A stretch of 24,000 nt of DNA from an uncultured bacterium (GTDB taxonomy: Bacteria; Patescibacteriota; Patescibacteriia; Patescibacteriales; SZUA-104): assembly GCA_913009695.1 (NCBI GenBank), contig CAJVWV010000011.1, positions 1 through 24,000 on the forward strand, written 5' to 3'. The position numbers and the translations under genes are program-made. The notes beneath the pieces are model-generated. The model saw only the letters and a program-made list of their open reading frames with translations, did not search any database and was not told the origin of the DNA. Positions 17,829-18,830 of this stretch are shown in pieces (positions within the stretch are counted from its first letter, which is position 1; each line of letters starts with the position of its first letter).

Positions 17829-17942
17829 CGACGGCTCCATGCTGTGCATGGAGTCATAGTGCAAGTCGCGGATAATAAATAAAACTTTTTTATTTCTAAC
17901 CAACGCTTGCAACTTGGCTCCACGCAAAGCATGGAGCCGTCG
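17829..17942. repeat. 114-nt MITE-like element with hairpin-forming terminal inverted repeats
   Basis: CGACGGCTCCATGCTGTGCATGGAGTCA matches the reverse complement of the right end, CGACGGCTCCATGCTTTGCGTGGAGCCA, at 25/28. Each arm contains the palindrome CTCCATGC/GCATGGAG. The centre is AT-rich. Confidence 0.8.
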
Positions 17943-17963: not shown

Positions 17964-18830
17964 ATGATTAACTTTTTACATACATTCAATCCAGACCCAA
18001 TTCTAATATCCCTCGGTCCCATAAATATCTACTGGTACGGTTTTTTTATTTTACTGGGGAGTATTTCGGCGCTTTTAATAACTTTAAAATTGGCGTCTTA
18101 TTATAATATAAAAAAAGACACAATTATTAATCTGGCTTTCTATTTAATTATCGGCGGAATTATCGGCGCGAGAATTTATCATGTTTTTTTGGAGTTTCCA
18201 TATTACCTAAGCCATCCGCTTAATATTTTTAAAATCTGGCAGGGCGGACTGGCAATCCACGGCGGAATAATCGCCGGAGTTATAATACTTTTCTTTTTTG
18301 CCAAATCAATATCAAAGAGATCCAATCTCCAAAAGGGAGATTGGATCTCTGCTCGAAAAAACTTTTGGTTGCTATCCGCCATTCTTGTTCCCGGCCTTGC
18401 CTTGGCGCAGGCAATAGGCCGATGGGGCAATTATTTTAATCAGGAACTGTTTGGACTTCCTACCGATAAAGCATGGGGAATTCCAATTAATTTTTTAAAT
18501 AGGCCGGCTGAATTTTTAAATTTTCAATATTTTCACCCTACTTTTATCTATGAATCAATGGGAAACTTTTTAATATTTTTAATTTTAATATTAATCAATG
18601 TTTGGATAATAAAAAACCATAAAAATCCTAACAGCTATAAGCTAACAGCTATAAGCTATTTAATCCTATATTCCATTCTCCGTTTTTCCCTTGAATTCAT
18701 CCGCATAGATACTACTCCAGAACTTTTAGGTCTTAGATTTCCGCAAATCGTCAGTCTGCTAATCATATTTTTAACGCCTATAATAATATTGCTATTGCCA
18801 AAAAATAAAAAAAATGTTAGCATCAAATAA
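17964..18830 (+). CDS. lgt: Prolipoprotein diacylglyceryl transferase
   Basis: GPINIYWYGFF, GARIYHV, WQGGLAIHGG and GRWGNYFNQELFG motifs. Multi-pass membrane protein. Confidence 0.92.
   Translation: MINFLHTFNPDPILISLGPINIYWYGFFILLGSISALLITLKLASYYNIKKDTIINLAFYLIIGGIIGARIYHVFLEFPYYLSHPLNIFKIWQGGLAIHGGIIAGVIILFFFAKSISKRSNLQKGDWISARKNFWLLSAILVPGLALAQAIGRWGNYFNQELFGLPTDKAWGIPINFLNRPAEFLNFQYFHPTFIYESMGNFLIFLILILINVWIIKNHKNPNSYKLTAISYLILYSILRFSLEFIRIDTTPELLGLRFPQIVSLLIIFLTPIIILLLPKNKKNVSIK
18316..18350. repeat. Perfect 15-bp stem hairpin embedded in frame in lgt
   Basis: AGAGATCCAATCTCC (18316-18330), loop AAAAG, GGAGATTGGATCTCT (18336-18350). It encodes KRSNLQKGDWIS. Confidence 0.8.

Follow-up and report, generated by a model that had tools for sequence, protein, structure and literature searches.

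A perfect hairpin inside a patescibacterial lgt gene is likely a short copy of a REPIN-like element, with a RAYT-like Y1/HUH transposase as its probable mobilizer

The lgt gene of an uncultured member of the Patescibacteria contains a perfect inverted repeat within its reading frame, raising the question of what this sequence is and how a membrane enzyme came to accommodate it. The window, the whole stretch of 24,000 nucleotides analyzed here, belongs to contig C11 of a 939 kb (0.94 Mb) assembly with 35% GC and a completeness of 79.7%. A preliminary description of the window had reported a perfect 15-bp stem with a 5-nt loop, in frame in lgt. Both the structure (18316-18330 versus 18336-18350, 15/15 nt or 100% complementary, loop of 5 nt) and the intact ORF were confirmed. 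The host gene and the parts of the hairpin are as follows:

17964..18830, plus strand: host gene lgt, intact, with all conserved motifs present (288-aa ORF; Pfam LGT, 2.7e-64)
18316..18350, unstranded: the whole 35-nt element, a REPIN-like doublet of the short form that folds into a perfect 15-bp hairpin, with arms present at 16 loci of the genome
18316..18330, unstranded: left arm (REP-like unit), the self-palindrome GAGAT-CCA-ATCTC, read directly from the sequence
18331..18335, unstranded: spacer or hairpin loop AAAAG, the variable part of the family
18336..18350, unstranded: right arm, the left arm inverted (GAGAT-TGG-ATCTC), read directly from the sequence

At the base composition of the window, a perfect stem of at least 15 bp with a loop of 3-10 nt is expected 5e-4 times per 24 kb, in line with the earlier estimate of well below 0.01. 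When the window was simulated 40 times with a first-order Markov model, the longest stems measured 8-11 bp. The hairpin has a folding energy of -25.3 kcal/mol as RNA (z -6.3) and of -15.7 kcal/mol as single-stranded DNA. Each arm of the family is itself a mini-hairpin with a stem of 5-6 bp and a 3-nt loop (6-3-6 design), as are the arms of sister families. Direct reading of the 35-mer revealed no stop codon in any of the six frames, and a minus-strand ORF (18203-18430) also traverses it. No T-run follows the lgt copy on its 3′ side, and an Rfam search returned no match at any hairpin.

The hairpin is translated as KRSNLQKGDWIS, residues 118-129 (K118-S129) of Lgt. Between the HGG and GRWGN motifs this protein has 50 residues versus 36 in E. 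coli Lgt (5AZB sequence), so that the excess of ~14 residues given in the preliminary description proved exact. An alignment of 28 Lgt sequences showed that the enlarged loop is atypical: basal relatives have a short, positively charged loop (FAKKNK-INFW) of the same length as that of E. coli, and in several relatives the identical point has received different palindromic insertions of unrelated sequence. The 14 extra residues are also present in a 99%-identical Lgt fragment from another assembly. In the orthologue L109 (71% identity), the loop contains a different perfect palindrome of 36 nt, which is identical to a hairpin inside the Y1 transposase gene of L075. This suggests that sister families struck the same Lgt loop independently. 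In an AlphaFold model of Lgt (pLDDT 78), K118-S129 form the tip of the helical hairpin made by TM3 and TM4, and confidence is lowest at residues 122-124. E. coli Lgt reportedly has seven helices with the N-terminus outside. Based on this topology and on the Lys/Arg-rich flanks, the TM3-TM4 loop should be cytoplasmic. The lgt copy is most likely a harmless passenger, translated as ~11-12 extra residues without a function of their own. Note that the database homologues of both Lgt and Pth of this genome are from Patescibacteria.

A search of the whole genome for the 35-mer revealed that it is not unique, its arms being present at 16 loci. Together with the length of the loop relative to basal relatives and E. 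coli, this dispersal supports the proposal that lgt carries an inserted element in a loop between transmembrane helices. Fourteen of the loci are doublets of 34-82 nt, in which 26 of the 28 arms have an identical core of 13 nt. The doublet spacers (4-52 nt, at least 8 types) pair with themselves, forming inner perfect stems of 8-15 bp. Thus, the doublets combine inverted arms and conserved ends with a variable spacer and compensatory changes, matching the description of REPINs as having invariant inverted ends and a less conserved spacer with compensatory changes (Bertels & Rainey 2011, PMC3116915). Some interior types are represented by three copies, and one is shared with a metagenome contig whose GC content differs, indicating that whole elements multiply and not the arms alone. 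Neither a GTAG nor a CGTC tag is found beside either arm at any of the 16 loci, and nowhere in the assembly does an arm pair enclose a gene. Intergenic copies are located 4-66 nt from gene ends, some of them followed by T-runs. As claimed earlier, the sequence is unrelated to the other families of the window; comparison with the GC-rich ones detected no relation.

At the remaining 2 loci the arms are swapped, with the TGG-loop arm first, and surround a conserved AT-rich core of 65 nt in elements of 95-97 nt:

C7:39659-39753 (L004:3001-3095): swapped-arm element between ribE and ribH
C17:7671-7767 (L012:3001-3097): swapped-arm element between the genes for the hydrogenase small and large subunits

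The 65-nt core contains a TTGACA-like box. These elements might represent a form of the family that carries a promoter.

The family has a narrow distribution. One of 40 relatives, a family-level relative, has the arms, and the same doublet design was found on 12 metagenome contigs. A 17-mer scan of 185k species genomes gave mostly single chance matches, with genuine copies only in a Candidatus Falkowbacteria MAG of the same family. On viral contigs single arms were detected and no doublet. On metagenome contig L049 the short hairpin occurs twice (100-260 and 745-905), each time followed by a conserved module of ~65 nt that closes with a GC-rich terminator hairpin; the arrangement may represent a gene for a small RNA or else a composite element of greater length. 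The two L049 copies, 645 nt apart, were considered as a REPtron and rejected, as the intervening ORF is no transposase. A CRISPR repeat was dismissed for lack of an array, and a tyrosine-recombinase core site or integron attC because the copies are dispersed and single, with spacers of up to 52 nt.

The family is not confined to extragenic DNA. Six of the 16 loci lie within ORFs, namely in lgt, murG, pth, comEC, a 525-aa ORF that holds a diverged copy, and a Y1 gene. The following copies in housekeeping genes are in frame, as in lgt:

MurG: encoded peptide GDPISKSEIGSP, phase 0
Pth: encoded peptide KRSNLQIGKSQFGDWIS, phase 1
ComEC: encoded peptide of 28 aa, phase 2

The preliminary description had likened the lgt hairpin to insertions in murD, and the copies in murG, pth and comEC agree with such behavior. 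In relatives, the loops that receive the element in Lgt, MurG, Pth and ComEC either are shorter or contain other insertions. Note that the insertion in MurG was judged from an orthologue alignment, Pfam coordinates being uninformative. In relatives (L142, L147, L132) the ComEC and MurG loops contain different peptides of repeat-like character (for example VETRSNASL and VETHDNASL), suggesting that these loops have been colonized repeatedly.

The closest Pth orthologue (L110, 77% identity) has an empty site, differing by one clean gap of 48 nt in the DNA. In this one empty-site comparison, no direct repeat or target duplication was found at the pth junction. The size of the gap indicates that the inserted unit is the 50-nt element minus ~1 base per end, equivalent to 16 codons. 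By analogy, the inserted unit in lgt is probably 33 nt or 11 codons:

18317..18349, unstranded: probable inserted unit of 33 nt (11 codons) by analogy with the pth 48-nt indel; ends ambiguous by 1-2 nt

The comEC copy, at 82 nt, falls outside a simple multiple-of-three rule. In the flanks of the copies, which are A/C-rich 5′ and G/T-rich 3′ and partly prolong the stem, neither a target-site duplication nor a target motif was found. Copies are depleted in ORFs (6/16 observed versus at least 75% expected, P = 0.0016), the expectation being that at least 75% of the genome is in ORFs of at least 150 aa. This suggests that most coding insertions are purged and that only in-frame insertions in permissive loops survive, helped by the absence of stop codons from the element in any frame. 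Annotators should be aware that hypervariable loops in housekeeping proteins of the CPR are often translated repeats.

A physical link to a transposase emerged from a tblastn search with the Y1 proteins of this genome against the hairpin-bearing metagenome contigs. The hairpin is located inside a Y1 gene on L051, L059, L063 and L055, and 8 nt past the stop codon on L052. In the genome under study, the copy at C16:23688-23737 likewise lies within the reading frame of a Y1 gene, in its 5′ portion, and the gene is cut short by the contig end:

C16:23493-23763 (5′ part) and C13:27527-27650 (3′ part): Y1 gene carrying the element, split over the ends of these two contigs; the break falls 26 nt past the hairpin, and ~280 nt of the gene are missing

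The in-gene hairpin is always just upstream of the strand that bears the HUH motif. In-gene copies differ in frame and spacer, indicating that the DNA is conserved and not the peptide. A C1 copy for which tblastn had suggested flanking transposase sequence was rejected, as the alignment matches the element only.

The C16-type Y1 clade comprises 2,425 database proteins at E < 1e-10, nearly all from Patescibacteria. It matches Pfam Y1_Tnp above the cut-off, and the HUH histidines H89 and H91 as well as Tyr149 are invariant. The best NCBIfam match is REP_Tyr_transpos (NF047646), although its scores of 23-46 bits stay under the cut-off of 80. With an AF2 model (pLDDT 81.5), the best Foldseek match was 4ER8 (TnpA-REP; E 3.5e-7), IS608 and ISDra2 following at ~5e-4 in the same search. 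The residues encoded by the hairpin form the least confident internal loop of this model. A profile search of the clade against PDB sequences gave no significant match (E about 0.5). The clade is present in 34 of 121 genomes of the order, with 1-4 matches per genome, and its gene neighbors recur, with recQ downstream and either folD or DHODH upstream, a recurrence that points to vertical inheritance.

In the protein alignment of this clade the loop is hypervariable and reads like a translated palindrome in most members. Of 26 orthologues representing many genera of the order, 22-23 have a perfect hairpin of at least 14 bp at the same in-gene site. The hairpin sequence is lineage-specific, usually with 6-3-6 arms in a doublet. 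The density of perfect hairpins is 3.5 per kb inside the site versus 0.27 per kb in the surrounding 80 kb, and many of the hairpins outside the site adjoin the Y1 gene 3′ or 5′, the classical REPtron position. In 4 of 6 tested genomes, including the present one, the in-gene hairpin is also the dispersed one. The other genomes and genes gave the following results:

G069: 104 arms in its own genome, 0 in the others tested
G087: 19 arms in its own genome, 0 in the others tested
G032, second paralogue: 5 loci in its own genome; other genomes unscored, since the arm is one base from that of G029 and the same search matched both
G047, G029 and G032-C43: in-gene copy only; elsewhere only in-gene copies of near-identical arms and one near-match

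The in-gene copy of G087 is one loop base off the dispersed majority. The in-gene copy of the genome studied here equals the dispersed copies C1 and C21 apart from the orientation of the loop, and is common to orthologues of 74-80% identity, indicating that it is older than the species split. Its age and its match to two dispersed copies favor the in-gene copy as a source copy. The family is also present in the relative G002, yet the in-gene hairpin of the single Y1 orthologue assembled there is a different one. About 8 of 19 sampled dispersed copies of G069 are in long open frames. The sister family of G069 (L111-L130) falls into two sub-types distinguished by their closing base pair: the G...C copies are mostly in long open frames, and the A...T copies are mostly intergenic, with A- and T-runs alongside that resemble a bidirectional terminator.

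The genome contains up to seven Pfam Y1_Tnp matches (C6:13590-14192, C4:43742-44119, C13:15038-15601, C27:6613-7302, C10:10135-10851, C8:2112-2744 and C4:19162-19533), five of them above the cut-off. Each is flanked and/or interrupted by its own hairpin family, with families at 2 to ~21 loci. The Y1 copy on C6 has an in-frame TAG. Other Y1 clades of the genome have hairpins at other in-gene positions, and other families carry GTAG. With up to seven Y1 genes present, the assignment of the lgt family to the C16-type enzyme has co-location as its only basis; this co-location suggests that the C16-type enzyme mobilizes the family.

In the window at 17829-17942, 21 nt upstream of the lgt start, there are two hairpin units of the GGCTCCATGC..GCATGGAG type ~60 nt apart. 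They belong to the family that flanks the Y1 gene C13:15038-15601, which ties what was earlier called a '114-nt MITE-like element' to a second REP/RAYT-like pair. On C10, perfect palindromes of 74 and 78 nt (C10:10392-10465 and C10:10803-10880) lie inside a Y1 gene or at its start. They have a common 28-nt GTAG-tagged center, and their outer arms are locus-specific and perfectly paired, the reverse of the pattern in the lgt family, where the ends are conserved.

Taken together, we consider it likely that the hairpin in lgt represents a non-autonomous, REPIN-like element in short form, probably moved by a RAYT-like Y1/HUH transposase. Two inverted 15-nt REP-like units around a short spacer would constitute the mobile unit. 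A RAYT-like Y1/HUH tyrosine transposase would recognize the mini-hairpins, and the element would be moved as single-stranded DNA and inserted without target duplication. The lgt copy would be tolerated because it has no stop in any frame and because the inserted unit is a multiple of three. The copy inside the transposase gene, in a surface loop before the HUH motif, is probably a long-lived source copy. Recognition by the enzyme would keep the arms constant, and the spacers may drift yet stay paired, probably via template switching between the palindrome halves. More tentatively, and with somewhat less than even confidence, we suggest that in the RAYT-like clade of Patescibacteria the gene carries the mobile doublet as a built-in source, forming an 'inside-out' transposon in which the gene is static and the hairpin spreads. 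If true, pairs of enzyme and substrate could be read from single genes in thousands of lineages and their co-evolution followed directly.

The family could also be mobile and REPIN-like with the copy in the Y1 gene merely a tolerated local insertion, in which case the mobilizer may be a different Y1. Local hopping of REPINs and a permissive loop ahead of HUH, near where the enzyme is made, would account for such an insertion. The number of Y1 genes and hairpin families in this genome would allow for this, and the hairpins at other in-gene positions in other Y1 clades mean that the in-gene copy could be a hot-spot insertion, much as the lgt, comEC and murG loops have been struck repeatedly by different families. 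The one-base deviation of the G087 in-gene copy from its dispersed majority points the same way. However, an incidental insertion fits poorly with a site that is filled in most orthologues across many genera, each with its own sequence, with the genes of G047, G029 and G032-C43 that keep their in-gene hairpin without dispersed copies in their genomes, and with a copy common to orthologues of 74-80% identity. We therefore regard this alternative as unlikely.

Two explanations without a Y1 enzyme were weighed as well. A signal in lgt or in its transcript that the host selects for (a site of pausing or of RNase action, a terminator, or an operator bound by a dimeric protein) would account for the very stable RNA hairpin (-25 kcal/mol), for the operator-like 6-3-6 palindrome in each arm, and for those intergenic copies near gene ends that precede T-runs and could terminate transcription. 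Yet Lgt orthologues lack the hairpin or have unrelated palindromes at that loop, the same sequence is read in three frames in unrelated genes, and the lgt copy has neither a T-run after it nor, like the other hairpins, an Rfam match, making a host signal in place of selfish DNA highly improbable. We give hardly any credence to a classical MITE, with terminal inverted repeats moved by the DDE transposase of an IS that is missing from the 80%-complete assembly. Conserved inverted ends, a variable interior and the incompleteness of the genome are compatible with it, but the pth insertion lacks a target-site duplication, the assembly has no gene bracketed by a pair of arms, each arm is a mini-hairpin within a REP doublet, and the physical link to the Y1 gene is strong.

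The preferred reading, a REPIN-like element with a RAYT-like partner, can be compared with several known systems. The GTAG/CGTC REP superfamilies (Di Nocera et al. 2013, PMC3733652) are also short palindromes often found beside Y1 genes, but neither tag is present at the foot of the hairpins of this family. In IS200/IS605 elements and their gene-less derivatives, a Y1/HUH enzyme recognizes small hairpins and insertion creates no duplication; single-stranded movement is established for IS608 and ISDra2 (structures 2VJV and 2XM3) and has been proposed for REPINs. The present system shares with IS200/IS605 the small hairpins, the Y1/HUH enzyme (a candidate here) and insertion without duplication. 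In IS200/IS605, however, the hairpins flank the transposase gene, which moves along with them, whereas in the present system the gene seems stationary, with one copy per clade, the adjacent hairpins are in the ORF, and the doublet alone spreads. In addition, the fold match to these enzymes is ~1000-fold weaker than that to TnpA-REP.

In-frame insertion into intact protein genes has a parallel in the Rickettsia palindromic elements (RPEs), palindromic selfish repeats that reportedly lie in frame in Rickettsia housekeeping genes and are translated as surface loops. RPEs are about 100-150 bp long, and we know of no identified transposase partner for them. The elements described here are shorter (34-82 nt), occur in a different phylum and come with a candidate Y1 enzyme as partner; note that the two are set apart by length and description. 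The lgt hairpin indicates that a membrane-enzyme loop of an ultra-small genome can tolerate translated selfish DNA.

The closest resemblance is to the REPIN-RAYT system (Nunvar 2010, PMC2817692; PMC3116915; 4ER8). Common features are inverted palindromic units with a less conserved pairing spacer, tens of copies per genome, no target duplication, and a partner Y1/HUH enzyme (best fold match TnpA-REP) whose gene is in a conserved neighborhood and often flanked by hairpins. Unlike in REPIN-RAYT, the present family has no GTAG/CGTC tag, its units measure only 15 nt and the element goes down to 34-35 nt, a third of the copies are in frame inside genes rather than intergenic, one copy is at a fixed site inside the transposase ORF, and the hosts are Patescibacteria. 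No account of a REPIN at a fixed site inside a RAYT ORF was found in the papers searched; the RAYT surveys among them examine extragenic flanks only. REPIN-type repeats in Patescibacteria gain a concrete candidate enzyme, from a clade in which enzyme gene and hairpin are physically nested and the hairpin shifts in sequence by lineage while keeping its place and shape. Hundreds to thousands of natural pairs of enzyme gene and hairpin would make the specificity of RAYTs for their repeats testable in vitro and by comparison. In conclusion, we rate the lgt copy as belonging to a known sort of element, and the nested system of gene and hairpin as a variant of REPIN-RAYT.
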